From an uncultured bacterium (GTDB lineage Bacteria; Krumholzibacteriota; Krumholzibacteriia; LZORAL124-64-63): a DNA stretch of 64,000 nt. The notes under the pieces are model-generated. The model was not told where the DNA came from. It made no database searches and saw nothing but the letters and a program-made list of their open reading frames with translations. A program made the position numbers and the translations under genes. Positions 29,533-63,814 of the stretch are shown here, piece after piece (the stretch's first letter is position 1; every line of letters begins with the position of its first letter). The stretch lies in NCBI GenBank assembly GCA_963727525.1, contig CAVSGO010000006.1, positions 46,906-110,905 of the forward strand, given 5' to 3'.

Positions 29533-31437
<1,905 letters not shown>

Positions 31438-39408: not shown

Positions 39409-40086
39409 TCAGCCGGCGGCCAGCATCGCGCGCAACACCGTCTCGCGCTCGAGGATGATGCGGCCGCGGGCCAGCTTTACCGCGCGGGCGCGCTCGAAGT
39501 CCTTCAGCAGACGACTGATGACCTCGCGGGCCGAGCCGAGATCGGCCGCGATGCGTTCGTGGGTCACCGCCAGTTCGCGCACGGGTTCGCCATCGCCGAA
39601 GAAGCGCTTGCCGAGATACTCTGCGAGGCGGCGATCCATGCGCTTGAACGCCACCTCCTCCACCAGGGACATGATGCCCGCGATGTGCGTGGAGAGCAGC
39701 GTGAACACGTACGTACGCAGCACCGGGTTGAGGTCGATCCAGCGCCGGAAATCGGGACCGCGGAATGCCACGGCCTGCACGTCCTCCTCGACGACGGCCG
39801 ACGCCGGACACGGCTCGCCTGACAGGAGGCACGACAGGTTGAGCAGGCACACCTCGCCGGCCTGGACGTGGTAGAGGGTGATCTCGCGTCCGGTGTCACC
39901 CAGCTTGTAGACACGCAGCTTCCCCTGACCGACCAGGGCGATCACCTCGGAATGCCGTCCCTCGGAGGCGTAGTGCGTGCCCCGTTTGAGTTCGGTGCGG
40001 ACGCCGACCGCGAGCATCTCCTTCTGGAACGCCGGGTCGCAATCGCGGAAGAATGGGTAGTGCTCGAGGATCCGTCGCTTGTCCAT
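39409..40086 (-). CDS. Crp/Fnr-family transcriptional regulator (no N-terminal Fnr-type Cys cluster evident)
   Basis: cNMP-binding beta-roll (GQGKLRVYKLGDTGREITLYHVQAGEV) and C-terminal HTH (RIAADLGSAREVISRLLKDFERARAV). Confidence 0.8.
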   Translation of the reverse strand: MDKRRILEHYPFFRDCDPAFQKEMLAVGVRTELKRGTHYASEGRHSEVIALVGQGKLRVYKLGDTGREITLYHVQAGEVCLLNLSCLLSGEPCPASAVVEEDVQAVAFRGPDFRRWIDLNPVLRTYVFTLLSTHIAGIMSLVEEVAFKRMDRRLAEYLGKRFFGDGEPVRELAVTHERIAADLGSAREVISRLLKDFERARAVKLARGRIILERETVLRAMLAAG

Positions 40087-40300: not shown

Positions 40301-41413
40301 CTAATCTGGGTGGGGCGGACGGCGCTTCCGATCGTCCGGATCGAGATCCCCATCGTCCGTGAAGATACGCAGGTCCCGCGGGGCGACATACATGACGTCG
40401 CCGGCGACCACGTTCAGCTCCTGGAATCGCTCCGGCGCGACCGCGGCCTCGAACTGCTCGCCGGTCGGTGTCCGCAATGCGAGCCTCACCGTAGGCCCCG
40501 CCGCGTGGACCGCCATGACCTCGGCCCGCAGGCTCGGGACCATTGGGGGGTGCCTTTCCAGGGTCAGTTCGTGCGGCCTGATGAAGACACGCACCGCGCT
40601 CGCGGATCGCGCCTGGTGAGCCGGCGCGTCCAGCACGACACTCGCGAACATCACCTTGCCGTCGGCCACGCGACCCCGGAACACGTTGACGTCTCCAAGG
40701 AAGTTCATCACGAATTCCGTCGCCGGTTCGTGGAATACAGCGTCGGGCTTCCCGACCTGTTCGATGTGGCCCTCGTTCATCACGACGATGCGATCGGCCA
40801 CCTCGAGGGCTTCGTCCTGGTCGTGGGTGACGAAGACGCTGGTGACGTGGATATGTTCGTGCAACTGTCGCAACCAGATGCGAAGCTGCTTGCGCACGCG
40901 TGCGTCGAGCGCGCCGAAGGGTTCGTCGAGCAGCAGCACGCGCGGCTCCACGGCGAGCGCCCGCGCCAGGGCCACCCGCTGGCGCTGGCCTCCGGAGAGC
41001 TGAGCCGGGAAACGATCGGCCATGGGTTCGAGCTGAACGAGTTGTAACAACTCCTGCACGCGCGCCGCGATCGCGCGGCGCGAGGGCCGTTCGCCTCGTG
41101 GCCTCACTCGCAGGCCGAAGGCCACGTTCTCGAACACCGTCAGGTGCCGGAACAGCGCGTAATGCTGGAACACGAATCCCACGCGGCGCTCCTGCACGCG
41201 CCGCCCGGCGACGTCCTGATCGTGGAAACGGACGGGACCGCTGCCGGCATCGGGAAGCTCGAGGCCGGCGATGATACGCAGCAACGTGGTCTTGCCGGAG
41301 CCGGAGGGTCCGAGCAACGCGGTGAGCTCGCCGGCCGGCAGGGTGACGCTCACGTTGCGCAACGCCGTGAACGTGCCATAGGTCTTGCTGACGTGTTCGA
41401 TGGTGATGCCCAT
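40301..41413 (-). CDS. cysA: Sulfate/thiosulfate ABC transporter ATP-binding protein
   Basis: Start trimmed to ATG 41413 ([13 protein letters not shown]). Walker [10 protein letters not shown], signature [15 protein letters not shown], Walker B LLLDEP, C-terminal TOBE-like domain. Confidence 0.85.
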
Positions 41414-41414
41414 G

Positions 41415-42296
41415 TCATGCGACCTCCGTCGCGCCATCGTGGCTGTGGACCTGCGCGGCTTGCGGTTCACCGGTCTGCTGTTCCATCAGCGCCCTGGCGG
41501 CCAGCGTCGCCAGAGCCAGGAGCGCGAGGAGCGAAGCTGCCGCGAAGGCGGCGACGAAGTTGTACTCGTTGTAGAGGATTTCTACCTGAAGCGGCAGCGT
41601 AATGGTCTTGCCGCGAATGTGGCCGGAGACCACCGAGACCGCTCCGAACTCGCCCATGGCGCGCGCATTGCAGAGAATCACGCCATAGAGCAGGGCCCAC
41701 TTCACGTTGGGAATGGTCACCCGCCACAGCGTTTGCCAGCCCGAGGCTCCGAGCGTGAGCGCGGCTTCCTCGTCGTCGGTGCCCTGGGCCGCCATGAGCG
41801 GGATCAGCTCGCGTGCCACGTATGGCAGCGTCACGAAGACCGTCGCCATCACGATGCCGGGCACCGCAAAGATCACCTGCAGATCGTGCGCGGCCAGCCA
41901 CGGGCCCAACCAGCCATGAAGGCCGTACACCAGCACGTAGACGAGGCCCGAGATCACGGGCGAGATGGCTAGCGGCAGGTCGATCAAGGTCGTCAGCACG
42001 GTCTTGCCGCGGAACTCGAACTTGGCGACGGCCCACGCCGCCGCGAGGCCGAACACCAGGTTCACGGGCACGGCGATCGCCGCGACGAACAGCGTGAGTC
42101 GGATCGCGGCGCGTACGGCCGGGTCGCCGAAGCTCGCCACGTAGGCGCGCGCACCGCGACGCAGGGCCTCGGCGAAGACGGCGGCCAGGGGCGCCAGCAG
42201 GAAGACCGCGAGAATCACCAGCGTTGCCGCCAGGGCCAGCCGGCGCGCCCAGCGAGGATCGGCGATGGCGACGCGCGGCGTCGATGCAACGGGCAT
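41415..42296 (-). CDS. cysW: Sulfate ABC transporter permease
   Basis: Start trimmed to ATG 42296 (MPVASTPRV...). Permease EAA-like loop [16 protein letters not shown]. The upstream 230 codons of ORF 41415..42998 are antisense/read-through junk. Confidence 0.8.
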
Positions 42297-42298
42297 GA

Positions 42299-43132
42299 TC
42301 AGACTCTCCCGCGCCGGGCCCAGCGCTGTAGCAGATTGATCGTCAGCAACAGGCCGAACGAGACGGCAAGCAGCGCCACCGCGATCGCCGTGGCGCCCGC
42401 CTCGTCGTACTGCTCGAGCTTGGTCACGATCAGGAGCGGCGCGATCTCGGTACGCATGGGAAGATTGCCGCTGATGAAGACCACGGAACCGTACTCGCCG
42501 AGCGCCCGTGCCAGGGCCAGACCGAAGCCGGTGAGCACGGCCGGCGCAAGGCCGGGCAGTACGACATATCGCAGGGTCTGTCGACGCCGCGCGCCGAGGC
42601 TGGCGGCGGCCTCCTCCATTTCGGGATCGAGGTCCGCCACGGCAGGCTGGAGTGTCCGAACGACGAAAGGTAGACCAACGAAGGCGAGCGCGATCACCAC
42701 GCCCAGGGGCGAGAACGCTGCTCGGATGCCCACATGTGCCAGCAAGCCGCCGAGCCAGCCCGTGGGAGCATAGATGGTTGTGAGTGCGATCCCGGACACT
42801 GCCGTGGGCAGGGCGAAGGGCAGGTCGATGAGGGCGTCGAGGATCCGTTGGCCGGGAAAGCGATATCGCACGAGCGCCCACGCCACCACCGTACCGCACA
42901 GCGTGTCGACGAATGCGGCGATCAGGGCGCTGCCGATGCTGAGCCGGCACGCCGCGACGACCCGCGGCGCGGTCACGATGTCCCAGAATCCGGTCCAACC
43001 AAACGTCGCGGAGCGCAGAACCAGCGCCGCCAGCGGCACGAGGGCCACGACCGAGAGCGTGAACAGCGTGACACCGAGCGTCAGCTCGAAGCCGGGAAGC
43101 ACCGTATGCTTGCGCGCCAGGAGGGCCATCAT
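42299..43132 (-). CDS. cysT: Sulfate ABC transporter permease
   Basis: MMALLARKHTVLPGFELTLGVTLFTLSVVALVP... ; EAA-like loop SLGARRRQTLRYVVLP; six-TM profile. Confidence 0.8.
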   Translation of the reverse strand: MMALLARKHTVLPGFELTLGVTLFTLSVVALVPLAALVLRSATFGWTGFWDIVTAPRVVAACRLSIGSALIAAFVDTLCGTVVAWALVRYRFPGQRILDALIDLPFALPTAVSGIALTTIYAPTGWLGGLLAHVGIRAAFSPLGVVIALAFVGLPFVVRTLQPAVADLDPEMEEAAASLGARRRQTLRYVVLPGLAPAVLTGFGLALARALGEYGSVVFISGNLPMRTEIAPLLIVTKLEQYDEAGATAIAVALLAVSFGLLLTINLLQRWARRGRV

Positions 43133-43139
43133 GGTTGCC

Positions 43140-44226
43140 TCATCGCCGCGCGGCCATCATCGCATCGAAGACGCCGCCGTCGACGAAATGCGTCTGCTGC
43201 GCGACTGTCCAGCCACCGAAGACATCATCGACGCTCATGCGCTGCAACGCCGGGAAGCGCGCGAGATCGGCCGGGTCGGCATTCGTGGGATCGACCGGCC
43301 GGTAGTAATGCTTCGCTGCGAGCCGCTGAGCGACGGGCGAGTACAGCCACTGCAGGTAGGCCGTGGCCACCGCACGCGTGCCGTGCTTGTCGGCCCACGA
43401 ATCCACGAGGGCCACGGGCGGTTCCGCGAGGATGCTCACCGATGGCACGACGATGTCGACGCGGTCGGGGCCGAACTCGTTGACCGCGAGAAATGCCTCG
43501 TTCTCCCAGGTGAGGAGCACGTCGCCGATGCCGCGCGCCACGAATGTGCCGGTGGCGCCTCGAGCCCCCGAATCGAGCACCGGCACGTGGGCGTAGAGCG
43601 CGGCGACGAAGGCGCGCGCGCTGTCCTCGGCCGCGGCAACGGCGCCGGCGGCGGCCGTGTCGTGCAGCCGTGCGAGGTCGCCGAGCTGCCGCTGCAGCGC
43701 CGCCGCCCACGCGGCGAGGTAGATCCAGCGCGCACCCCCCGAGGTCTTGGGATTGGGGGTGATCACCGTCACGCCCGGCGCGAGCAGGTCTGCGCCAATC
43801 GTGGATGCCGCGGGGATTCCCCTTGCGCACCAGGAACACCACGGTCGAGGTGTACGGCGTGCTGCCGTTCGGTAGCCGCTGTCGCCAGTTCCCGGGCAAG
43901 GTGCCGGCATGTGAGGCGATCGCGTCGATATCGTGGGCCAGCGCCAGCGTCACGACGTCGGCTTCCAGCCCCTCGATCACGGCCCGCGCCTGGGCGCCGG
44001 AGCCGCCATGCGACATCGCGATCGTCACTGTCTGCCCGGTCTCCAGCCGCCAGTGCTCCGCGAACGTCGAGTTGACGTCCCTGTAGAATTCGCGGGTCGG
44101 ATCGTAGGAGACATTGAGCAGGGTGAGCGGCCTTTCCGATGCCGCGGCGGGCTCGCTCCGACGGCACCCGATCGGGAATGTCATGATGGCCAGCAGCGCC
44201 AGGATCATGAGGGATGCGCGGGACAT
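43140..44226 (-). pseudogene. sbp: Periplasmic sulfate/thiosulfate-binding protein (Sbp/CysP), split by a +1 frameshift near nt 43785-43803
   Basis: N-terminal part (ATG 44226, AGGAGG RBS, lipoprotein-like signal [21 protein letters not shown] ... [19 protein letters not shown]) lies in the ORF 43225..44364 frame. The C-terminal part ([29 protein letters not shown] ... LTWENEA ... FGGW) lies in the ORF 43140..43910 frame. Removing one base from tggCgcagacctg restores ...HDWADLLAPG.... Confidence 0.75.
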
Positions 44227-44263
44227 GTTGCCTCCTTCCGGTGGGTTCTCCAGCAGATAAGAG

Positions 44264-44278
44264 GCAAATGATGGGCCA
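44264..44278 (-). promoter_or_regulatory. Sigma-54-type promoter candidate TGGCCCatcatTTGC (GG-N10-GC) 38 nt upstream of sbp
   Basis: Minus-strand reading of 44278..44264 gives TGGCCC-N5-TTGC, which matches the TGGCAC-N5-TTGC consensus at the -24 GG, the -12 GC and the TTGC element. Confidence 0.45.
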
Positions 44279-44382
44279 ATCGCATGATGATATACAACTT
44301 GTTGCCGCACAATAAATAGCTTATTTAGTATGCCGTATACCGTGAAATGTGGTAGCTTTGCCATGAAATATCATGGTATGAT

Positions 44383-44400
44383 CCGTGATATATCACGGAG
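44383..44400. promoter_or_regulatory. Perfect 18-bp palindrome TCCGTGATATATCACGGA (with nearby CCATGA-aata-TCATGG, 44361-44376) in the divergent sbp / sigma-54-activator intergenic region; candidate activator (UAS) or autoregulatory site
   Basis: Seen directly. Lies about 105 bp upstream of the putative sigma-54 -24 element of sbp and abuts the RBS of the activator gene. Confidence 0.45.
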
Positions 44401-44410
44401 GAGGCCTGCC

Positions 44411-45976
44411 ATGGCGACCGATTCCTGGCTGCTCGACGTCTGGCGAGAAGCCTGCCAGCATCTTGACCTCGGCGAGCTGATCGCGCGGCTCGCCCCGCTC
44501 GTCAAATGCCGCTGGCCCGTGAGCGCGGTCGCCGTGGCGCGCCAGTCGCCCGACGCCAAGGTGATGGAACTTGTCGGCCCGCTTGGCGACGGCGACGTCG
44601 CGGCGGACCAGCGCCGCGAGCTGACGTCTGCCGATTCCCGCTTGCTCGGCGCCTGGCTTGCACAGGGGCAGACGGAGATCATCGCGAACGACGGCCGGGT
44701 GCCGTCCGGTGTGGCCACGCTTCTGCCCGCTGCGTACACCCGGGCCGGTACCGTCATCGCGCCGCTCACCTCGTCCGATGAGGCGCGCGGGCTACTCGTG
44801 GTCGTACCCGCGGATTCCGAGGCGCCGCACGGGGTGCTTCCGGCTGTCGAGCAGCTGCGGGCTCCGCTCGCCGCAGCCCTGGCGAACGACCGTCGGTTGC
44901 GTGAGCTGGTGGATCTGCGCCGGGCTGCCGAAGCCGATCGGCGATCCTTGCTCACGCGTCTCGGCCGCGACGAGTTGCTCGAGACCATCGTCGGCGCCGA
45001 CGGCGGCCTGCGTGGTGTGATGGCACGCGTCGCCATGGTCGCGGCGTCGGACATACCGGTGCTGATCCTGGGCGAGACCGGTGCCGGCAAGGAGGTCGTG
45101 GCGCGCGCCGTGCACGCGCGGTCGCGACGCGCGCACGGGCCGTTCACGCGCGTGAACTGCGGTGCCATCCCGCCAGAGCTGGTGGATTCCGAACTCTTTG
45201 GCCACGAGAAGGGGAGCTTCACCGGCGCCATGTCCCGCCGCCGCGGCTGGTTCGAGCGCTCGGACCAGGGCACCCTGTTGCTCGACGAGGTCGGCGAACT
45301 GCCGAAAGCGGCGCAGGTGCGGTTGCTACGAGTGATCCAGGACGGCATGCTCCAGCGTGTGGGGGGGGAGTCGATGCTCCGGGTCGACGTGCGGATCATC
45401 GCAGCCACCCATGCCGATCTTGCCGCCATGGTGCAGCGCGGCGAGTTTCGCGAGGACCTGTGGTACCGGCTCGCTGTTTTTCCGCTGGTGTTGCCTCCCC
45501 TGCGTGAACGGACCGAGGATATTCCCGACCTCGTTGCCATGCTCGCGCGACGCGCCTCGCGACGATTCGGCCTCAGGCCGCAGCGACCGACGGCTGCCGA
45601 TCTCGCCCTGCTTGCGGCCTATCCGTGGCCGGGAAACGTCCGGGAACTGGGTTCGGTAATCGATCGTGCCGCCATCCTGGGCGATGGCAAGTGTCTGGAT
45701 ATCGCGAAGGCGCTCGGCAGCGGCGGTCCCGGCATGCACGCGGGGGCATGGGCGTCGTCGCCACGTGCGACGAGCGCGACGCCCGAGGCGCTCGCGTCGC
45801 TGGACGCGGCGATGGCTGCGCACATTCGCGCCGCCCTCATTGCCTGCGATGGTCGTATCGAGGGGGCGCAGGGCGCGGCCGTTCTCCTGTGCATCAACCC
45901 GCACACGCTGCGCGCGCGCATGCGAAAGCTCGGTCTCGAGTGGGCCCGATATCGGGTCCATCGATCCACAGGCTGA
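44411..45976 (+). CDS. Sigma-54-dependent transcriptional activator (bacterial enhancer-binding protein): N-terminal GAF-like sensor, AAA+ sigma-54 interaction domain, C-terminal HTH
   Basis: ATG 44411 with GGAGGAGG RBS. Walker A GETGAGKE, sigma-54 contact motif GSFTGA, RVDVRIIAATH, PWPGNVREL, C-terminal HTH (AQGAAVLLCINPHTLRARMRKLGL). Confidence 0.85.
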   Translation: MATDSWLLDVWREACQHLDLGELIARLAPLVKCRWPVSAVAVARQSPDAKVMELVGPLGDGDVAADQRRELTSADSRLLGAWLAQGQTEIIANDGRVPSGVATLLPAAYTRAGTVIAPLTSSDEARGLLVVVPADSEAPHGVLPAVEQLRAPLAAALANDRRLRELVDLRRAAEADRRSLLTRLGRDELLETIVGADGGLRGVMARVAMVAASDIPVLILGETGAGKEVVARAVHARSRRAHGPFTRVNCGAIPPELVDSELFGHEKGSFTGAMSRRRGWFERSDQGTLLLDEVGELPKAAQVRLLRVIQDGMLQRVGGESMLRVDVRIIAATHADLAAMVQRGEFREDLWYRLAVFPLVLPPLRERTEDIPDLVAMLARRASRRFGLRPQRPTAADLALLAAYPWPGNVRELGSVIDRAAILGDGKCLDIAKALGSGGPGMHAGAWASSPRATSATPEALASLDAAMAAHIRAALIACDGRIEGAQGAAVLLCINPHTLRARMRKLGLEWARYRVHRSTG

Positions 45977-46044
45977 ACTCCCATGTTTTTTGTAAGTGAT
46001 GTATGTCTTTATATTTACACGAATCGGCACATGCGATTTTATTT

Positions 46045-46058
46045 GTTAAATTTTTAAC
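46045..46058. promoter_or_regulatory. AT-rich palindrome GTTAAA-tt-TTTAAC within the AT-rich promoter island (45980-46124) upstream of the cytochrome-rnf gene string
   Basis: Perfect 6-bp arms with a 2-nt spacer. The island also contains TTTACA-N17-TTTTAT (46012-46040) as a possible sigma-70-like promoter. Confidence 0.25.
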
Positions 46059-46124
46059 CTATGACTAGGTTACATCACGAGCACGTTCCCTGAACACAGG
46101 CCGCACACGATGCGAGGTGGTCTC

Positions 46125-46602: not shown

Positions 46603-47256
46603 ATGCCCTTCGCTGGACGCGATGATCATGGTTCGCCGGTTCGCGGTCACGCTCGCAGCAATGCGGTGCTGATCGTCGTTGCGGTCGTGGCCGCCGCCGT
46701 CGCCGCCGGCGGATACTTGCGGGGGGCGCCGCCGCCGACGACTGATCGCATCTACCTGCGCAGCATCGGCGGCGCGGTTGTCTTCGGACATGCGGAGCAC
46801 CAGGCTCGGGTCGCAAGCTGCCTGCCCTGCCACCATGAACTGATCCTGGGCGATCCGATCGCCTGCGCCACGTGCCACGATGCGGATGTCACGTTCGATC
46901 TGGCGTCGCATGACGAACTCGTGCAGATCGATGGCCACACCTGCGACGGCTGTCACGCGAGCGCAGATGCCACGGGTGCGCGCAACTGCCGCGCCTGCCA
47001 TGCCTCTGAGGTCGAAGGCGCAACGAGCGTGCATGCCTGCAGCGATTGCCACGATGATGCGACATACGGGCCGGCGACGTTGCCGCACGCGAGTCTCGTG
47101 ACCATCGAAGGACACAGTTGCGATGGGTGCCACACACCTCGCGCCCTTGCAGAAGCGTACCACGCGACCTGCAACGGCTGTCACCTGCGAGCCGCCCCGC
47201 AGCGATTCGCTGCAGCCGATGGTGGCGCGACGTGCGCAGCGTGCCACCTGAAGTGA
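46603..47256 (+). CDS. Membrane-anchored octahaem c-type cytochrome (cytochrome c3-like) immediately upstream of rnfC
   Basis: N-terminal TM/signal-anchor AVLIVVAVVAAAVAAGG. Eight CxxCH motifs (CLPCH, CATCH, CDGCH, CRACH, CSDCH, CDGCH, CNGCH, CAACH) in 217 aa. Confidence 0.85.
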   Translation: MPFAGRDDHGSPVRGHARSNAVLIVVAVVAAAVAAGGYLRGAPPPTTDRIYLRSIGGAVVFGHAEHQARVASCLPCHHELILGDPIACATCHDADVTFDLASHDELVQIDGHTCDGCHASADATGARNCRACHASEVEGATSVHACSDCHDDATYGPATLPHASLVTIEGHSCDGCHTPRALAEAYHATCNGCHLRAAPQRFAAADGGATCAACHLK

Positions 47257-47272
47257 AACGCGGAGGTCGATC

Positions 47273-48577
47273 GTGAGCTTGCTCAACCTGTTCAAGACAC
47301 CCGCGGCTCGCGTCCCCCGCGTGGCGCTCGGGTCCACGGCGATCGTCGACCTGCCCGATCCCGACCACGTGGTGATCCCCCTCGAGTATCCCGGTCAGAT
47401 TCGCTTTCGACCCGCGGTCCAGGCCGGAGACTCCGTGGCGCGCGGGCAGGTGATCGGCCGTTCCGAACTGGGCAACTGCGTGCACGCCTCGATCAGCGGG
47501 CTGATCAAGGAGATCCGGACAATCTGGTCGGCTAGTGGCTACCACGTTCCGGCGGTCGTCATCACCCGCGGCGACGCACCCGCGCTCACACCCACCGAGT
47601 GCCTCGGACAGTGCGGGCTCGATCTGGCCTCGGCGACACGCATCGCATTGCTCAAAGCGGGCGGTGTGATTTCCCCGTGGACCACGCCGGGCCAGGACCA
47701 CCGAGAAGCGGACATCGGCGAGTTCCCGGACATCCAGCACATCGTCGTGAAGGGGCTGAACGAGGAGCCCACGATCGTAAATTTCGAGCTGCTCATGGTG
47801 GAGGGAGCCGGCAGGCTGAAGGACGCGTTGCAACGGCTGTGCGATTTCGTGCCCCGCGCCACGATATGGTTGACGGTGGCGCGCCGCCTCGAGCCGTGGG
47901 CGCGCGAGACCTTCGAGGACCTCGTACGCGTGGTGGGCCTCGCCGAGGAGTATCGCCATCGCATCGAGCGGATGGTGGTGCCGCGCGTGACGGGCGTGGC
48001 CATTGCGAATACCGAGGCGTTCCGGTCGCGCGGTGTCGCCGTGCTCTCCGTCGAACACCTGCTGACCGCGGCCGATGCGCTTGCCGGCAAGCCATTCACG
48101 CACAAGACGGCGACGATAGCCGGAGGCCTTCTGCGCGAGCCGGTGACCGTGCGCACACCGGTCGGAACGACGATCGGGACCTTGCTCGCGAGCCAGGGCA
48201 TGAGCGCCGCCGACTACGGTCGTCTGATCGTCGGCGGCCCGATGCGCGGCATGACGCAGTATACCGACGAGACGCCGTTGAGCAAGTTCCAGCACGGCGT
48301 ATTGGTGATGGCAGCGTCCGAGCTGCCGGCGGAGCTGAACCGTACCTGTGTGAACTGCGGCCGCTGCACGCGCGCCTGTCCCGTGCACCTGCAGGTGCAC
48401 CTCATCGGGCGTTGCGTGGAGTACAACCTGCTTGCCGAAGTGCCTTCGCGCCACCCAGAGGCCTGTCACGAGTGCGGGCTCTGCGCCTTCGTCTGTCCGG
48501 CTCATCGGCCCCTGGTGCAGATGATGAAGATCGCCAAGCGTGCGGGCGTGACCGAGACGAGCGAGGCGGTGGCATGA
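47273..48577 (+). CDS. rnfC: Rnf electron-transport complex subunit C
   Basis: GTG 47273 with GGAGG RBS. RnfC_N-like N-terminus, IVGGPMRG, C-terminal 2x[4Fe-4S] (CVNCGRCTRACP, CHECGLCAFVCP). Not evaluated: no canonical GGxGFP FMN/NADH motif was seen by eye. Confidence 0.8.
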   Translation: MSLLNLFKTPAARVPRVALGSTAIVDLPDPDHVVIPLEYPGQIRFRPAVQAGDSVARGQVIGRSELGNCVHASISGLIKEIRTIWSASGYHVPAVVITRGDAPALTPTECLGQCGLDLASATRIALLKAGGVISPWTTPGQDHREADIGEFPDIQHIVVKGLNEEPTIVNFELLMVEGAGRLKDALQRLCDFVPRATIWLTVARRLEPWARETFEDLVRVVGLAEEYRHRIERMVVPRVTGVAIANTEAFRSRGVAVLSVEHLLTAADALAGKPFTHKTATIAGGLLREPVTVRTPVGTTIGTLLASQGMSAADYGRLIVGGPMRGMTQYTDETPLSKFQHGVLVMAASELPAELNRTCVNCGRCTRACPVHLQVHLIGRCVEYNLLAEVPSRHPEACHECGLCAFVCPAHRPLVQMMKIAKRAGVTETSEAVA

Positions 48578-49608: not shown

Positions 49609-50206
49609 AATCGGTCGCCTGGTGCTGGTGCTCGGGCTCATCGGCGTGGTGAGCGCGTCGTCGCTGGCATACGTGCGCACGACCCTCGCTCCCCGGATCG
49701 AGCGGCAGAACGATTTCTACGTGCGCGGGCCGGCGCTCGAACGGCTGTTCCAGCAGCCGGCACGCACTCTCCTGGGCAACAAGGTGACGCTGGATGCGGC
49801 CGGCACCCGCTACCTGATCTTCTTTCGGCGAGTGGACGGCGACGTCACGGGTCTCGCCGTGGAAGCGCCTGGCCACGGCGGCTACGCCGGCGACGTGGTG
49901 ATGATGGTCGGACTCGATCTTGTCACCGAACGGATGCTCGGCGTGGAGATCGTCTCGCACGGCGAGACCCCGGGCGTGGGTGCCCGGATCGAGAGACCGA
50001 CATTCCGCAAGCAGTGGCGAGGCTTGCCGATGGACGACACGCTGAATCTGCGCACTGCGGGCGGCAACATCGACGCGATCAGCGGTGCCACCTTCTCGTC
50101 GCGTGCCATGATCGACGGCACCAACCAGGTCGATGGCCCTGATGCGGGATCACAGGGCCGACATCCTGGCGCGCATAGCCGGGAACTAGACGGAGAGCGG
50201 TCATGA
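49601..50206 (+). CDS. rnfG: Rnf complex subunit G (FMN-binding); last ~20 codons possibly frameshifted
   Basis: N-terminal TM anchor ([19 protein letters not shown]), FMN-binding-domain motif [14 protein letters not shown]. From about nt 50130 the +1 frame reads ...[18 protein letters not shown] (protein-like, RnfG-like C-terminus), whereas the called frame reads [23 protein letters not shown]. Confidence 0.7.
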
Positions 50207-50815
50207 CGTTCAGGCAGGCACTCACTCACGGGTTCTGGCGAGACCTGCCGCCTTTCCGGCTGGTGCTTGGCCTCTGCCCGGCTCTGGCCGTCACCTCGGC
50301 CGCGCCCAACGGGCTGGGCATGGGGTTGGCGGTGACCTTCGTGCTGATCTTCTCCAACATGTTCATCTCGCTGCTGCGCCGGGTGATCCCCGAGCGAGGT
50401 ACGGATCGCCAGCTACATCGTGGTGATCGCCAGCCTCGTGGTGCTCGTGGAACTGGGCATGAAGGCGTTCTTCTTCTCGCTCTCCCAGCAGTTGGGGATC
50501 TACATCCCGCTCATCGTCGTGAACTGCATCCTGCTGGGGCGCGCCGAGGCGTTCGCCTCGCGCAATCCTGTGCTGCTGTCCGTGGCCGACGGGGTGAGCG
50601 TGGGGCTGGGCTACACGGTCTCGCTCACGTTGATGGCGTCGGTGCGCGAGGTCCTGGGCGCCGGCACGTGGTTCGGCCATACAGTGTTCGGACATGGTTT
50701 CGAGCCCTTCGGTTTCATGGTCAGGGCGCCGGGGGCGTTCCTCTGCCTGGGCCTGCTCCTCGGACTGATGAATGCCTGGAGCCGCAAGCGCGGCGAGTTC
50801 TTCGTGCAGACGTGA
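50203..50815 (+). pseudogene. rnfE: Rnf complex subunit E, interrupted by a +1 frameshift at about nt 50392-50404
   Basis: ATG 50203 (GGAGAG RBS): [64 protein letters not shown], then junk in-frame. The conserved continuation (E)[43 protein letters not shown]... is in the next frame (ORF 50420..50815). Removing one G from gagcgaGgtacgg joins them. Confidence 0.8.
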
Positions 50816-50829
50816 CGGGAGACCGTGCC

Positions 50830-51405
50830 ATGAACCTGATTCTGCTGACCGTGAGTGCGATCTTCGTACACAACATCCTGCTGGCGCAATACCTGGGCAA
50901 CTGCCCGTTCTGCGGCGTATCGAAGAGGATCGAAACCGCGACCGGCATGGCGGTGGCCGTGGTATTCGTGACCACTCTGGCGTCGATCTTCACCTGGGGC
51001 ACGTATCACCAGATTCTCGTGCCATTGCACCTGGAGTACCTGCAAACGCTGGTCTTCATCCTGGTGATCGCGGCCCTCGTGCAGTTCGTGGAGATCTTCC
51101 TCAAGAAGAAGAGCCGTTCCCTCTACAACGCGCTCGGGATCTACCTGCCACTGATCACCACGAACTGCGCCGTGCTGGGGATCGCGTTGCTCAATATCAA
51201 GAACAACTTCGGCTTCGTGCACATGGTGGTGTATTCCGCCGCCAGCTCGGCGGGATTCGGCCTTGCCATCGTGCTGTTCGCCGGGGTGCGCGAGCGCCTC
51301 TTCCTGTCGCCGGTGCCGCGGTCCATGCAGGGGACGGCGATCGCCCTCGTCACGGCCGGCATCATGTCGCTCGCGTTCCTGGGGTTCGCGGGCATGGTCG
51401 AGTAG
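50830..51405 (+). CDS. rnfA: Rnf complex subunit A
   Basis: ATG 50830. [27 protein letters not shown]...[19 protein letters not shown] (RnfA/RnfE family signature). Confidence 0.85.
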
Positions 51406-51420
51406 CCACGGAGACGCACC

Positions 51421-53511
51421 ATGTGGATCCCCGCTGTCGTCCTCGGAGGTATCGCCGCGATCGCGGCGGTGGTGCTGGGCATTGCGGCGCGCGTCTTCCA
51501 CGTTCAGGAAGATCCGCGGATCAAGGCCGTCAATGACCTGCTCGCCGGCGCCAACTGCGGGGGCTGCGGCTACGCGGGCTGCGTCGCCTGTGCGGAGGCG
51601 ATCGTCCGCGGCGAGGTGGAGCCCAACGCATGCGTGGTCGGTCAGGCCGATGTGGCGCGCGCCGTCGCCTCGTTTCTGGGCATGGAACTGGCCGACACGG
51701 AGCCGCAGATCGCGTGCCCCGACTGCCAGGGAGGGTTGCGCGCCTCGCGCAAGTACGCCTACGCCGGCTTTGACGACTGCCGCGCTGCTATGCTCTATTT
51801 CCACGGCCCCGTGTCATGCCAGCACGGATGCCTCGGGCTGGGCACCTGCATCCGCGCCTGCAAGTTCGGGGCGATCACGATGGGGCCCGCCGGGTTGCCC
51901 CTCTTCGATCCTACGCGCTGCGTGGCCTGCGGCGCCTGCGCTCGCGCTTGCCCCAAGGGCATCATCTCGATCATTTCCGAGACGACCAAGATCCTGCACT
52001 GGAATCGCTACACCGAATGCCTGGCCCCGTGCCGGCAGAAGTGTCCGGCGCAGATCAACATCCCCAAGTACATCGAGCACCTGAAGCGCGGCGAGTTCGC
52101 CGAGGCGTTGCTGACGATCAAGGAGAGCAACCCGCTACCGCTCTCCACGGGCCGGGTATGCCCCGAGCCGTGTGCCCTGGCCTGCCGGCGACATATCGGC
52201 GACGAACCGGTAGCGATCAACTATCTCAAGCGCTTCGCGGCCGACTGGGAAATGAGCTCGGGGCGCCGCCTGCACATCCCTGTGCTTCCGGATACCGGCC
52301 GGAAGGTCGCGGTGATCGGAGGCGGGCCAGCCGGACTGTCCGCGGCCTACTTCCTGCGCCGCCTCGGCCACGCCGTCACCATCTATGATCAGATGCCGGC
52401 GCTCGGCGGCATGCTGCGCTACGGCATTCCGGAGTACCGTCTTCCCAAGCGTGTTCTCGACTGGGAGATCGAGGGCATCCTGGCACTCGGCATCCAGGCC
52501 GCGACCGGTGTCGCTCTGGGCAAGGACTTCACCATCGATTTCCTGCGCGCCAATGGTCACGACGCGATCTTCCTCGCCGTGGGTGCATGGCGCGACAATG
52601 GCCTTGGCCTCGAGGACGACGGCGTCTCTGGTATCGTGAGCGGCATCGAGTTGCTGCGGCGCATGCAGACGTCCGCGCCGATCCCCTTACGTGGACACGT
52701 GATCGTGATCGGCGGCGGCAACACCGCCATCGATGCCGCGCGCACCGCCCTGCGAGCCGGCGCGAGTCGGGTGAGCATCGTGTATCGCCGTTCGCGCGAC
52801 GAGATGCCGGCGAATCCGGCCGAGATCGTGGCCGCTGACGAGGAGGGCGTGCGATACCGCTTCCTCAGCGCGCCCAACCGCATCGTATCCGACGCCGGCC
52901 ACGTCACCGGGCTCGAGATTCTGCGCATGGAGCTGGGCGAACCCGATCCCAGCGGTCGGCGAAGGCCCGTGGCGATCGCGGGATCGGAAGAGACGATCCC
53001 GTGCGACCTGATCATCGAGGCCGTGGGCCAGATGCCCGACATCGATTTCCTTGCGGTGCCGGGCATGCCGTCGTTGCCGACAACGCGCTGGAACACGATC
53101 GACGCCAGCGAGGACACGCTACAGACCGATGTGCCCTACATCTTCACCGGTGGTGATTGCTTCACGGGACCCTCGCTCATGGTCAACGCGATCGGTGCTG
53201 GTCGGTATGCGGCACGATCGATCCACTATTACGTGACCGAGGGCAGGATTCCGCCAATCGAGCACCGACAGACCGAACTCATCAGCGACTCGCTCTACGA
53301 GTCCATCGCGGGTGTGGCACCCCGCCCTCGGGTGCACGAGCCCGTCGTGACGCTGCAGGACCGCCTCGGCACTTTCAATGAGGTCGAGGGCACGATCGAC
53401 GAAGAGGATGCCCTCTACGAGGCCGCGCGTTGCCTGCATTGCGGCACCTACTGCTATGACCACGATCTGGAGCAGGAACGTCTGCGGCAGGAGACCGAGC
53501 AGCCGGCGTGA
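51421..53511 (+). CDS. rnfB: RnfB (N-terminal membrane anchor + Fe-S/ferredoxin domains) fused to a GltD/NfnB-like NAD(P)H-dependent FAD oxidoreductase (696 aa)
   Basis: GGAGA RBS. MWIPAVVLGGIAAIAAVVLGIAA, NCGGCGYAGC (RnfB cluster), two 4Fe-4S ferredoxin motifs (CIRACKFGAI / CVACGACARACP); then KVAVIGGGPAGLSAAYFL (FAD GxGxxG) ... VIVIGGGNTAIDAARTA (NAD(P) GxGxxA) ... TGGDC as in glutamate-synthase small-subunit-like flavoproteins. Confidence 0.8.
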   Translation: MWIPAVVLGGIAAIAAVVLGIAARVFHVQEDPRIKAVNDLLAGANCGGCGYAGCVACAEAIVRGEVEPNACVVGQADVARAVASFLGMELADTEPQIACPDCQGGLRASRKYAYAGFDDCRAAMLYFHGPVSCQHGCLGLGTCIRACKFGAITMGPAGLPLFDPTRCVACGACARACPKGIISIISETTKILHWNRYTECLAPCRQKCPAQINIPKYIEHLKRGEFAEALLTIKESNPLPLSTGRVCPEPCALACRRHIGDEPVAINYLKRFAADWEMSSGRRLHIPVLPDTGRKVAVIGGGPAGLSAAYFLRRLGHAVTIYDQMPALGGMLRYGIPEYRLPKRVLDWEIEGILALGIQAATGVALGKDFTIDFLRANGHDAIFLAVGAWRDNGLGLEDDGVSGIVSGIELLRRMQTSAPIPLRGHVIVIGGGNTAIDAARTALRAGASRVSIVYRRSRDEMPANPAEIVAADEEGVRYRFLSAPNRIVSDAGHVTGLEILRMELGEPDPSGRRRPVAIAGSEETIPCDLIIEAVGQMPDIDFLAVPGMPSLPTTRWNTIDASEDTLQTDVPYIFTGGDCFTGPSLMVNAIGAGRYAARSIHYYVTEGRIPPIEHRQTELISDSLYESIAGVAPRPRVHEPVVTLQDRLGTFNEVEGTIDEEDALYEAARCLHCGTYCYDHDLEQERLRQETEQPA

Positions 53512-61192: not shown

Positions 61193-63814
61193 GTGAACTT
61201 GAGAGCTTCACTGCGTGCGCTGGCCGTGTTTATTCTCGCCGCGACACTGTCCAGCATCACCTCTCTCTCCTCGGCGTACGCCGACAACGACACGTGCTTC
61301 ATGTGCCACGACGATGCGTCGCTCAAGAGCGAGTCGGGCAAGTCCGTCGGCGTTCTGGCGAAGTTGTTCGATGCGAGTGTTCACGCCGGCCTGGAGTGCA
61401 CCGACTGCCACACGCAGGACGCGAACTTCGATGACGTGCCGCATTTCTCGCGTTACCAGCCGGTCAATTGCGCGATGTGCCACGAGGACGCGGCGCACAG
61501 CTTCGGATTGAATTTTCACGCCAAGGCGGCTACCCAGGGCAACACCAATGCTCCGAACTGCAAGGACTGCCACGGCGTCGACGGCAATCCCCACGCGATG
61601 CGCGCCCTTACCGCGCGCACGGCGGAGTCGGCGTGCCGACGGTGCCACGCTTCGGAAGCCAAGATCTATGACACCGGTGTGCATGCGATCGCCGACAAGG
61701 GTGGTCGCGAGAGGGCCGGATGCGTGACCTGCCACCAGTCGCACGGCCCGGGTCTGCCGCCCTCGTCCGGCGCCGTGAACGGCCTCTGCGAGAAGTGCCA
61801 CAAGGGCGCCATGGAGGACGTCCAGCGCGGTGGCCACGTGGCCATTGGCGAGGGACTCAACCAGACGCTGAACTGCGCTTCGTGCCACGACGTGCATGGC
61901 ACGCACAAGCCGCACCTGTCCGCGCGCGTGGCCCAGGCGTGCGTCACCTGCCACCAGAAGGAACGCGATGCCTTCATAGGGTCGGTACACGAGACGCTCA
62001 TCGCCGGCGGCACGATGCATTGCCTTTCCTGTCACAGCACGCACAAGGACGAGGCGGCGGCGCGGCAGTACGACGCGGGCTGCGGCAGTTGCCACGGCGA
62101 CGTGGAAAAGATCTACCGCGGTAGCGTGCACCGTTTCGGCCGCTTGCGCGGCGATGACGGTGCCGCGACGTGTGCCAACTGTCACCACGGACACCATATC
62201 CTCCCGGCGACCGATCCGGCGTCGCCGACGAATCGCTTGAACATTCCCAGCACCTGCGGCGAATGCCACACCGATGAGAGCATCGTCACCAAGGACTTCG
62301 TGCGTCTGCCGATCACGCTGCCAAACTACATGAACTCGGTGCACGGCAAGGGGCTCGTGGCGGGCAAACCCACCGCGACCTGCACCGACTGCCATGGCAC
62401 GCACGACCTGCAGACCGCCCAGGATCCGAATTCGAAGATCAATCGGTTCCACATCGCGCAGACGTGCAGCAAGTGCCACGCGGATATCGCGGAGAAATAC
62501 GAGAACTCGATCCACGGCAAGGCTGTGCAGGTGGGTATCGAGGATTCGCCGACCTGCATCGATTGCCACGACGAGCACCTGATCAAGGACGTCAAGGACC
62601 CCACCGCGCGGCAGAATCCAGAGAACATCGCGCGCGAGCTGTGCGGTGACTGCCACAACAACTCGGACATGGTGTCGAAGTACGGCATCGCCGCGGGCGT
62701 CGTGAGCAGCTATCTCGACAGCTACCACGGGTGGGCGATCAGCCGCGGGGGAACCCTCGTGGCCACCTGCGTCGATTGCCACACGACCCACGAGATCCGG
62801 GCCCCGCAGGATCCCGAGTCGTCGGTCTTCGTGGACAACGTGACAAAAACGTGCGGCAAGTGCCACGCGAATGCCAACGAGACGTTTTCCCGCTCTTACA
62901 CGCACGCGGGCGCGCTAGCGGCGCGCGGGCCGCACGGCTGGGCGAAGCTGATCTACCTCATCCTGATCGCCGTGGTGCTTGGCGGCATGGCGCTGCACAA
63001 CTTCGTGATCGCGCGCTTCGAGATCATCAAGCACCGCGTGCGCCGGCGCCGGGAGGCGTACGTCGTGCGCTGGCAGCGCGTGGAGCGCGTGCAGCACCTG
63101 ATCCTGCTCACGTCGTTCTTCGGCCTGGCCATCACCGGCTTCGCGCTGCGCATGCACGACGCCTGGTGGGTCAAGGTGATCGGCCTCGGTGGCTCCGAGT
63201 CGGTGCGCGCCAACCTGCACCGCGCGCTGGCCGTGATCCTCACCGGAGCAGCGTTCTTCCACCTGTGGTGGATCATCGCCACCCGGCGCGGTCGTTACGC
63301 CGTCAAGGAGATGGCGCCCGGCGCGCACGACATCGTGCACTTCATCAAGAACATGGGCTTCCACCTGGGCTTCACGTCCGAGCGACCGAAGTTCCGACGG
63401 TTCGATTACACGCAGAAGGCGGAGTACTGGGCGGTCGTCTGGGGCACCATGGTCATGGCTCTCACCGGGCTCGTGCTGTGGTTCCCCGTGCTGGTGACCA
63501 CCTGGACGCCCGCCTGGGTGGTGCGCGTGGCCGAGGTGGTGCACTACTACGAGGCCATCCTCGCGGTCTCGGCCATCATCATCTGGCACTTCTTCTACGT
63601 CATCTTCATGCCATCGGAGTACCCGGTGAGCACCGTGTGGCTCGACGGCCGCATGCCGGAGCACGACTGGAAGGAATTCCACGCGGCCGAGCACGAGACC
63701 GACGGCGACGCAGTGGTGCAGCAGCCCGGGCCCAGCACCGATCTGCCCGGCATCGCGGTGTTCGTGCCCAAGGCGTTGCGCAGCAAGCGTCCTCCCGACC
63801 CGAAACACGGGTGA
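61193..63814 (+). CDS. Fusion of a 19-haem periplasmic c-type cytochrome domain with a C-terminal membrane dihaem cytochrome b (FdnI/HydC-like); CbcL-like inner-membrane quinol:cytochrome oxidoreductase candidate (873 aa)
   Basis: GTG 61193 with GAGAGGGA RBS. Signal peptide. 19 CxxCH motifs (CFMCH ... CGKCH). Then four TM helices with conserved Arg/His (VVRWQRVERVQHLILLTSFFGLAITGFALRMHD..., HRALAVILTGAAFFHLWW..., EYWAVVWGTMVMALTGLVLWF..., HYYEAILAVSAIIIWHFFYVIF), as in cytochrome b subunits of formate dehydrogenase / NiFe hydrogenase. Confidence 0.85.
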   Translation: MNLRASLRALAVFILAATLSSITSLSSAYADNDTCFMCHDDASLKSESGKSVGVLAKLFDASVHAGLECTDCHTQDANFDDVPHFSRYQPVNCAMCHEDAAHSFGLNFHAKAATQGNTNAPNCKDCHGVDGNPHAMRALTARTAESACRRCHASEAKIYDTGVHAIADKGGRERAGCVTCHQSHGPGLPPSSGAVNGLCEKCHKGAMEDVQRGGHVAIGEGLNQTLNCASCHDVHGTHKPHLSARVAQACVTCHQKERDAFIGSVHETLIAGGTMHCLSCHSTHKDEAAARQYDAGCGSCHGDVEKIYRGSVHRFGRLRGDDGAATCANCHHGHHILPATDPASPTNRLNIPSTCGECHTDESIVTKDFVRLPITLPNYMNSVHGKGLVAGKPTATCTDCHGTHDLQTAQDPNSKINRFHIAQTCSKCHADIAEKYENSIHGKAVQVGIEDSPTCIDCHDEHLIKDVKDPTARQNPENIARELCGDCHNNSDMVSKYGIAAGVVSSYLDSYHGWAISRGGTLVATCVDCHTTHEIRAPQDPESSVFVDNVTKTCGKCHANANETFSRSYTHAGALAARGPHGWAKLIYLILIAVVLGGMALHNFVIARFEIIKHRVRRRREAYVVRWQRVERVQHLILLTSFFGLAITGFALRMHDAWWVKVIGLGGSESVRANLHRALAVILTGAAFFHLWWIIATRRGRYAVKEMAPGAHDIVHFIKNMGFHLGFTSERPKFRRFDYTQKAEYWAVVWGTMVMALTGLVLWFPVLVTTWTPAWVVRVAEVVHYYEAILAVSAIIIWHFFYVIFMPSEYPVSTVWLDGRMPEHDWKEFHAAEHETDGDAVVQQPGPSTDLPGIAVFVPKALRSKRPPDPKHG

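Follow-up and report, generated by a model that had tools for sequence, protein, structure and literature searches.

A widespread GAF-fold sigma-54 activator family with a probable role in the control of sulfate import

The window analysed here is a 64,000-nucleotide stretch of a contig (CAVSGO010000006.1, positions 46,906 to 110,905) in the genome assembly of an uncultured Krumholzibacteriota bacterium (GCA_963727525.1). Two divergent transcription units occupy positions 40301-45976 of this window: a sulfate-import operon, sbp-cysT-cysW-cysA, and the gene for a sigma-54-dependent activator (bacterial enhancer-binding protein, bEBP). We consider it likely that the operon is driven from a sigma-54 promoter by this activator, as part of a GAF-fold bEBP family that acts through palindromic sites, and that the signal it conveys is sulfur status. 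This reading was obtained by comparing sequences. The linkage of the two units, the promoter and the conservation of the sites across 85 related loci all support such a circuit for sulfate uptake, as a first-pass annotation of the window had proposed.

The sulfate-import operon

The genes encode a true ABC transporter for sulfate/thiosulfate, as the four components are found in operon order and pass curated family models. All four genes are on the minus strand. The permease genes cysT (42299-43132) and cysW (41415-42296) matched TIGR02139 with 376.6 bits (cut-off 246.1) and TIGR02140 with 387.3 bits (cut-off 329.1), respectively, and the ATPase gene cysA (40301-41413) matched TIGR00968 with 379.4 bits (cut-off 342.75), its product also carrying CysA_C_terminal and TOBE_3 domains. 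The first gene, sbp (43140-44226), encodes a sulfate-binding periplasmic protein with a lipoprotein-type signal peptide. The start of cysW overlaps the stop of cysT (TGATCATG) and cysA starts 1 nt past the stop of cysW. Because stops and starts overlap or abut in this way, the genes are taken to form one operon, as expected.

The start codon of sbp (44226-44224, minus strand) is preceded by a Shine-Dalgarno sequence, GGAAGGAGG, at 44239-44231. The first-pass annotation had recognized the gene, but lacked its interruption by a +1 frameshift near 43794 (43785-43800, minus strand), where the window reads GAT TGG C GCA GAC CTG and the homologues have D-W-A-D-L. The frame opening at 44226 matches positions 20-144 of the Sbp profile and no further. 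The C-terminal part is an open reading frame at 43140-43910 in another frame, which matches profile positions 132-327 and exceeds the NCBIfam cut-off (232.1 vs 155.5 bits). With one base deleted at ~43794, the gene encodes a 361-aa Sbp that can be aligned with homologues over its whole length (58-74% identity). The frameshift is not inside a homopolymer run, and it represents either a real pseudogene, the rest of the operon being intact, or a mistake in the assembly.

Directly downstream of cysA is a gene of the CRP/FNR family (cNMP_binding and HTH_Crp_2 domains; 39409-40086, minus strand), for which the related loci inspected have no counterpart.

A predicted sigma-54 promoter and three putative enhancer sites in the spacer

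The activator gene (44411-45976, plus strand) encodes a 521-aa protein. A Shine-Dalgarno sequence, GGAGGAGG, is located 6 nt upstream of its ATG at 44411, and the N-termini of the homologues coincide with this start. The divergent arrangement had been noticed in the first-pass annotation, and the gene models agree with it. The AT-rich spacer between sbp and the activator gene had been given as 184 bp; it measures exactly that (44227-44410), with a GC content of 46% compared with 67% for the window.

A sigma-54 promoter element, TGGCCCATCATTTGC (TGGCCC-N5-TTGC), is present on the minus strand at 44264-44278, with the GG at 44277-44276 and the GC at 44265-44264. It is the element previously reported upstream of sbp, and we count 37 nt between its last base and the sbp ATG. 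From this position, transcription is predicted to start near 44252, with a leader of ~26 nt. A simple scan of the spacer revealed neither a sigma-70 consensus promoter nor a terminator, and the activator's own promoter was not located by it. Control of the LysR type is not what sbp displays, as the adjacent regulator is a bEBP and the spacer is without a sigma-70 consensus.

On the side of the activator gene, the spacer contains three related sites of the type CCGT-N8-ACGG, with centres 21 and 22 bp apart. Site 1, CCGTGATATATCACGG (44383-44398), forms the core of the perfect 18-bp palindrome TCCGTGATATATCACGGA at 44382-44399; it scores 23.7 bits with the position weight matrix (PWM) described below, fits the family consensus CCGTnAnATnTnACGG and ends 12 nt before the activator ATG. 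Site 2, CCATGAAATATCATGG (44361-44376; 18.9 bits), is placed 22 bp from site 1, centre to centre. Both had been listed as palindromes in the first-pass annotation, which is correct for TCCGTGATATATCACGGA in full; for CCATGAAATATCATGG it holds for the 6+6 arms, which are perfect, but not for the centre. A third copy had been missed: site 3, CCGTGAAATGTGGTAG (44340-44355), starts with CCGTGAAAT, is located 21 bp from site 2 and is degenerate, with a good left half-site. Allowing up to three mismatches, the palindrome motif occurs three times in the window, where 0.51 occurrences are expected, and two of these are inside the spacer. The remaining match, CCGTCATAGTCCACGG (three mismatches; 30548-30563), is within the arginine decarboxylase gene speA (29533-31437) and was taken as a chance occurrence.

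Between the putative enhancer sites and the promoter there is an AT-rich stretch (44279-44339) with an imperfect inverted repeat at 44307-44333 and an IHF-like match at 44311-44323. The IHF-like matches in the spacer all carry one mismatch. The stretch may serve as a bending region.

Distribution of the family and genes divergent from it

One genome per GTDB species was scanned with two N-terminal signature peptides and the relatives were then confirmed, yielding relatives of the activator N-terminal domain in 447 GTDB species. The best 80 loci from these species were combined with those collected earlier into a comparative set of 85 non-redundant loci. Most belong to Planctomycetota. The others are from Myxococcota, ‘Deltaproteobacteria’, Gemmatimonadota, Hydrogenedentota, Verrucomicrobiota, Acidobacteriota and Binatota, plus one metagenome-assembled genome (MAG) labelled as Fibrobacteraceae. 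Relatives of the full activator number in the thousands; the best 120 show 53-71% identity over 71-100% of the length (97-99% for most), and the nearest loci come from uncultured MAGs. Complete genomes with a family member include OY969623.1 and CP070772.1.

Among five genomic contexts inspected individually, four have the activator gene divergent from sbp-cysTWA, namely those of two relatives with 61-62% identity and of proteins from Phycisphaerae and Krumholzibacteriia. In the comparative set, the first divergent gene is sbp in 36 of the 85 loci, and an OprO/P-type anion porin followed by sbp-cysTWA in another seven. It encodes a TauE/SafE (TSUP) permease in seven loci, a DUF1559 pseudopilin-like protein in four (some with sbp-cysT further on), a DASS (Na+/sulfate symporter-type) permease in three and an NMT1-type solute-binding protein in two. 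Single loci have a PBP_like_2 solute-binding protein, a BON-domain protein followed by sbp-cysT, a cupin or a TonB-dependent receptor in this position. The family member of Bremerella cremea JCM 17758 (L066) is also found beside a cupin gene. No family was identified for the first divergent gene in 18 loci, and four had too little flank to tell. The annotated functions suggest a common theme, the import of sulfate or related sulfur anions, served by four unrelated transporter types. Genes downstream of the activator are not conserved.

The fifth of the individually inspected contexts (L006, GCA_046098145.1, labelled Halomonas elongata) contains a family member of 54% identity without a sulfate transporter. 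This member adjoins small unknown open reading frames and a pyruvyl-transferase-like gene, and it has a good outward sigma-54 element, TGGCATGGAGCTTGCT. The gene may have been transferred horizontally, or the assembly may be mislabelled or contaminated.

Conservation of the promoter and of the sites

The 300 bp upstream of the activator start were scanned in all 85 loci with a simple weighted consensus (score ≥17.5). A sigma-54 element was detected on the outward strand in 76% (65/85) of the loci, compared with 16% for the inward strand and 3% for shuffled sequences. The logo of the 65 positive loci, TGGCAYG-N4-TTGC, equals the classical consensus.

Sites chosen on their outer CCGT/ACGG, with at most one mismatch, were found in 53 of the 85 upstream regions and in 11% of control windows. 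Conservation extended to inner positions that had played no part in the selection, with A8 in 68 and T9 in 63 of 79 sites, as well as A6 and T11, which gives the consensus CCGTnAnATnTnACGG. A PWM was built from the sites thus selected; at a threshold of 10 bits, its background is 0.035 matches per kb. Applied to the 220 bp that precede the activator start, it recovered at least one site in 73/85 loci, at least two in 51/85 and three in 14/85, counts that are partly circular because the training set was also the test set. The spacing pattern and the metagenome scan described below are independent of this circularity. Neighbouring sites are separated by 20-23 bp (37 cases) or 41-45 bp (22 cases), i.e. 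by two or four helical turns, and arrays of three sites with spacing like that in the window occur in 14 of the 85 loci. Whatever the target gene, the sites keep a steady distance from the activator start codon, 12-70 nt upstream in nearly all loci.

A metagenome collection was also scanned for the DNA pattern CCGTNANATNTNACGG-N5-7-CCGTNNNATNNNACGG, with no protein information being used. Among the 34 loci found, 16 have an activator-family gene starting a few bp past the site, and a further locus shows a porin-sbp-cysT arrangement at a contig end. Half of the 34 loci are without an activator. From the activator-less loci, L119 looks like a secondary target, and L093, L094 and L100 do so more weakly. 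L119 (955-1094) has tandem CCGT-N8-ACGG sites and, ~70 bp off, a perfect TGGCAC-N5-TTGC, with no activator gene nearby; 17 nt beyond this element is a gene for a class-V aminotransferase resembling cysteine desulfurases. As a single example, it is a possible secondary member of the regulon.

Enhancer sites and promoter are also found together at a distance from the activator gene. Three sites plus CTGGCACGCGACGTGCA are located upstream of DUF1559-BON-sbp-cysT in L028 (3650-4116), and two sites plus TTGGCACGCGGGTTGC upstream of two DUF1559 genes in L041 (7565-7694, 8035-10169). As these second units sit away from the activator gene, enhancer and sigma-54 promoter travel as a unit.

In Planctomycetota, DUF1559 genes are found behind such enhancer-plus-sigma-54 units, often between the activator gene and sbp, and they also occur in L009, L022, L032, L042, L044, L065, L074 and L077. 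The encoded proteins combine a prepilin-type N-terminal methylation motif with SBP_bac_10. Their position suggests that members of this hugely expanded family are co-regulated with sulfate uptake.

Several of the activator-less loci from the metagenome scan were set aside, as they contain a different repeat, CCGTAACATGTGACGG or CCGTCAAATCTGACGG, and no sigma-54 element. This other 16-bp palindrome occurs in tandem at L088, L091, L106, L115 and L116 (also at L096, L098 and L120), partly inside open reading frames and with no activator, and it looks like an unrelated repeat or operator family.

Domain architecture of the activator

The activator is a member of a widespread and apparently uncharacterised bEBP family, in which a GAF-fold sensor is followed by an AAA+ domain and a probable Fis-type helix-turn-helix (HTH). 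The AAA+ sigma-54 interaction domain and its lid cover residues 194-432 (44990-45706), with PF00158 matching residues 194-359 at 220.5 bits (cut-off 20.2) and AAA_lid_14 matching residues 365-432. The sigma-54-contacting loop reads GSFTGA (45212-45229), a variant of GAFTGA that is also the family consensus; F and T are kept, and the variant is regarded as functional. The Fis-type HTH at residues ~471-507 (45821-45931) is weak, as HTH_8 matched with E = 0.012 and 15.8 bits, under the cut-off of 22. Precomputed PF02954 matches are present in some homologues, and the sequence GINPHTLRARMRKLG is highly conserved.

The N-terminal region (~residues 1-172, 44411-44926) had been called a GAF domain in the first-pass annotation. 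Fold and profile evidence agrees with this assignment, but Pfam did not detect the domain. An AlphaFold2 model of the region, based on an alignment of 22 family members, reached a predicted local distance difference test (pLDDT) of 89.7 and a predicted template modelling (pTM) score of 0.88. When the model was compared with the PDB by Foldseek, almost all of the 24 matches at E ≤ 0.001 were annotated as GAF, with TM scores of ~0.55-0.72. They include the GAF domains of cyanobacteriochromes, phytochromes, PDE5 and adenylyl cyclases, and that of the Aquifex bEBP Nlh2. Searching with the domain profile gave 1,890 cluster representatives at E ≤ 1e-10; via its C-terminal half, the profile also matches repeat units of giant multi-GAF proteins. 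On the predicted fold, the N-terminal domain is a divergent GAF domain. This status rests on fold and profile evidence because no Pfam or NCBIfam family gave an N-terminal match, even at E ≤ 10. Residues invariant in the family include W11-R12-E13 and H17 in helix 1, forming a WREAC(R/Q)H motif, as well as W82 and P118-L119. The linker helix ALENDRRLRE is likewise invariant.

Proposed mechanism

The comparison shows directly which domains the activator has, that promoter and sites are conserved in geometry and orientation, and that linkage to sulfate and other anion transporters is conserved; from this we infer the following course of binding, activation, signalling and autoregulation. Activator dimers would occupy two or three of the CCGT-N8-ACGG sites, two helical turns apart, just before their own start codon. 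The GAF domain would keep the ATPase inactive until the signal arrives. Active dimers would then assemble into an ATPase ring, which loops out ~90-115 bp of AT-rich DNA to meet sigma-54 polymerase at 44264-44278. The ring would open the TGGCCC-N5-TTGC promoter, and transcription would proceed from near 44252 through sbp-cysT-cysW-cysA.

The GAF domain would most likely gate the ATPase in answer to a metabolite indicative of sulfur status, and cells short of sulfur would thereby turn on sulfate uptake. Sulfur status is argued from the content of the regulon. Candidate signals, named here as speculation, are O-acetylserine or N-acetylserine, adenosine 5'-phosphosulfate (APS) or its 3'-phosphorylated form (PAPS), and sulfide or persulfide. 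The activator probably represses its own gene too; negative autoregulation is likely because the sites overlap the leader or promoter of the regulator itself.

A wider reading is more tentative, and we rate it as a possibility falling somewhat short of an even chance. The family as a whole would be the master regulator of sulfur limitation in Planctomycetota and several other phyla (Myxococcota, Gemmatimonadota, Hydrogenedentota, Fibrobacterota-like bacteria and others), a functional analogue of CysB. The signal, a metabolite of the sulfur pathway, would be perceived by a GAF domain that sequence models miss. The nucleotides APS and PAPS would be natural ligands, with O-acetylserine, or sulfide/persulfide sensed via the WREAC(R/Q)H motif, as alternatives. 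Beyond transporters, the regulon would take in the planctomycetal DUF1559 pseudopilin-like proteins and the cysteine-desulfurase-like enzyme.

Alternative explanations

A number of observations weigh against control of the operon by the activator as proposed above. Pfam GAF is not matched by the activator N-terminus (residues 1-188), even at E ≤ 10. No RpoN box is present within the 64-kb window, and the presence of rpoN in this genome is deduced solely from the activator being intact. With up to one mismatch, the -24/-12 pattern occurs eight times in the window against 4.7 expected, which is not significant by itself; the sigma-54 assignment of the first-pass annotation gained its strength from the 85 loci instead. 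At -24, the window has a C (TGGCCC) where 57 of 65 relatives have an A, a variant common to a few relatives. To these points are added the partial circularity of the PWM counts and the approximately one-fifth of related loci in which the divergent gene is unidentified or does not encode a transporter. Finally, sbp is frameshifted, and the operon may therefore have lost its function in this organism, unless an assembly error is the cause.

The alternative that survives best retains the circuit as described and replaces the signal: redox, energy or nitrogen/carbon status, or another oxyanion such as thiosulfate, selenate or molybdate, would be sensed in place of sulfur limitation and would induce the transporter. 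The GAF domains of other bEBPs sense NO, 2-oxoglutarate or formate. In addition, some family members face cupin, TonB-dependent receptor or DUF1559 genes, and the neighbours in the window are respiratory (Rnf, multihaem cytochromes). However, the divergent genes share sulfate/sulfur-anion import across phyla (ABC, TSUP, DASS, anion porin), and the genes on the downstream side of the activator are not conserved. We therefore regard a signal unrelated to sulfur limitation as unlikely.

It is much less probable that the match to the sigma-54 consensus is fortuitous, in which case a sigma-70 promoter that escaped recognition, controlled by a CysB-type regulator or some other one, would serve sbp and the activator would have its targets elsewhere. 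The frequency of the pattern in the window and the -24 hexamer that deviates from the consensus would be compatible with such a coincidence. Yet the position and orientation of the element are maintained in 76% of the 85 loci, in contrast to 3-16% in the controls, the logo is classical and the spacer has no sigma-70 consensus. Furthermore, the promoter accompanies the enhancer even where the unit is displaced from the activator gene.

The palindromes could also be operators of another regulator, such as the CRP/FNR-family protein encoded next to the operon, since the sites in the window hold GTGA...TCAC and CGTGA-N4-TCACG resembles the layout of FNR-type half-sites; we give this the least credence of all, because what is conserved is the outer CCGT/ACGG and the central AT, with free variation at positions 5 and 12 (the G of GTGA), because the distance from the sites to the activator start is fixed regardless of the target gene, because none of the related loci inspected has the CRP-family gene, and because the DNA pattern alone recovers the activator gene.

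Relation to known regulators

The closest parallel to the proposed circuit is NorR, which acts in the norR-norVW divergent region of Escherichia coli and Ralstonia eutropha. The two have in common the order of GAF, AAA+ and (in the activator, probable) HTH domains, a regulator gene divergent from the target operon, and three inverted-repeat enhancer sites beside the regulator gene with a sigma-54 promoter ~100 bp away. Repression of the ATPase by the GAF domain until ligand binding, as well as negative autoregulation, are likely to be shared too. NorR (NF003451; 314.6 bits) is moreover one of the two best NCBIfam matches of the activator, the other being NifA (TIGR01817; 314.8 bits). However, the NorR score is below the cut-off of 476 and the alignment covers residues 146-428 only, leaving the GAF domain outside. 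The NorR site is GT-N7-AC instead of CCGT-N8-ACGG, and its target is NO detoxification, not sulfate import. A non-haem iron centre as in NorR was neither looked for nor encountered.

NifA and FhlA are likewise bEBPs that contain GAF domains, and NifA provides the closest solved structure (9qq6), which is the best PDB sequence match of the activator (E = 8.7e-75, residues 127-436). Both models nevertheless stay below their family cut-offs (528.85 for NifA; 284.4 bits vs 830 for FhlA), and the NifA alignment, like that of NorR, begins at ~residue 146. The N-terminal domain cannot be aligned with theirs by sequence, and the binding site and regulon differ.

In enterobacteria and pseudomonads, sbp, cysPTWA and the cys regulon are controlled by the LysR-type regulators CysB and Cbl. 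As here, a sulfate/thiosulfate ABC importer is induced, presumably by sulfur status via a small molecule. The machinery is different: CysB and Cbl act as LysR tetramers on sigma-70 promoters, whereas the window has an AAA+ activator and a sigma-54 promoter, and the DNA sites and taxa differ as well. The first-pass annotation had described the arrangement as a departure from CysB control, which is right as far as known, and our literature search found nothing to contradict it. SfnR of Pseudomonas and FisR of Cupriavidus are sigma-54 activators in sulfur metabolism. They illustrate that activators of this class can have a part in acquiring sulfur (dimethylsulfone utilisation) or in oxidising sulfide. 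Unlike the activator described here, they target organosulfur and sulfide-oxidation genes rather than a sulfate importer, and SfnR itself is under CysB.

In the literature searched, there was no account of sigma-54/EBP control of sbp-cysTWA or of this activator family, which is not proof of absence. Neither a comparative survey of sigma-54 (PMC3162934) nor the Desulfovibrio EBP regulome (PMC4641369) describes such control or the family. The regulator family, its motif and its tie to primary sulfate uptake thus appear to be new, and the mechanism appears canonical and NorR-like. As the mechanism is of the textbook kind, the advance is one of assignment and not of principle.

Genes downstream of the activator

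A second AT-rich region of 133 bp (45977-46109, ~47% GC) follows the activator stop codon, ahead of an operon that reaches 53511. This operon encodes a 162-aa protein without a family match, a multihaem cytochrome c (46603-47256), an RnfC-like protein (47273-48577), RnfE/RnfA-like membrane subunits (50203-51405) and RnfB fused to a GltD-like NAD(P)-binding oxidoreductase (51421-53511). Control of this Rnf/cytochrome operon by the activator was considered and rejected, as the region 45977-46109 contains neither a site nor a -24/-12 element and the downstream neighbours are not conserved. Further along the window (61193-63814), a gene encodes a protein of ~870 aa with decahaem c-type motifs and a cytochrome-b domain (Ni_hydr_CYTB/formate dehydrogenase gamma-like). 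The same protein is encoded near the activator gene in the closest relatives (L001, 11844-14456; L003, 13346-15958).

Implications for sulfur acquisition

Most of what is understood about the control of sulfate assimilation concerns Proteobacteria (CysB/Cbl), Firmicutes (CymR, CysL) and Actinobacteria. We know of no such regulator for Planctomycetota and many uncultured lineages, and none was found in the literature search. To an activator family present in at least 447 species-level genomes, the analysis assigns a promoter type, a probable function and a DNA-binding motif (CCGTnAnATnTnACGG, with the sites of an array phased at ~21.5 bp). Regulon prediction thereby becomes possible in genomes that carry the family, and a testable entry to the sensed signal is provided. 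A sulfur-related role is also suggested for the DUF1559 proteins. Sigma-54 is classically tied to nitrogen; the circuit proposed here would link it to the primary acquisition of sulfur.

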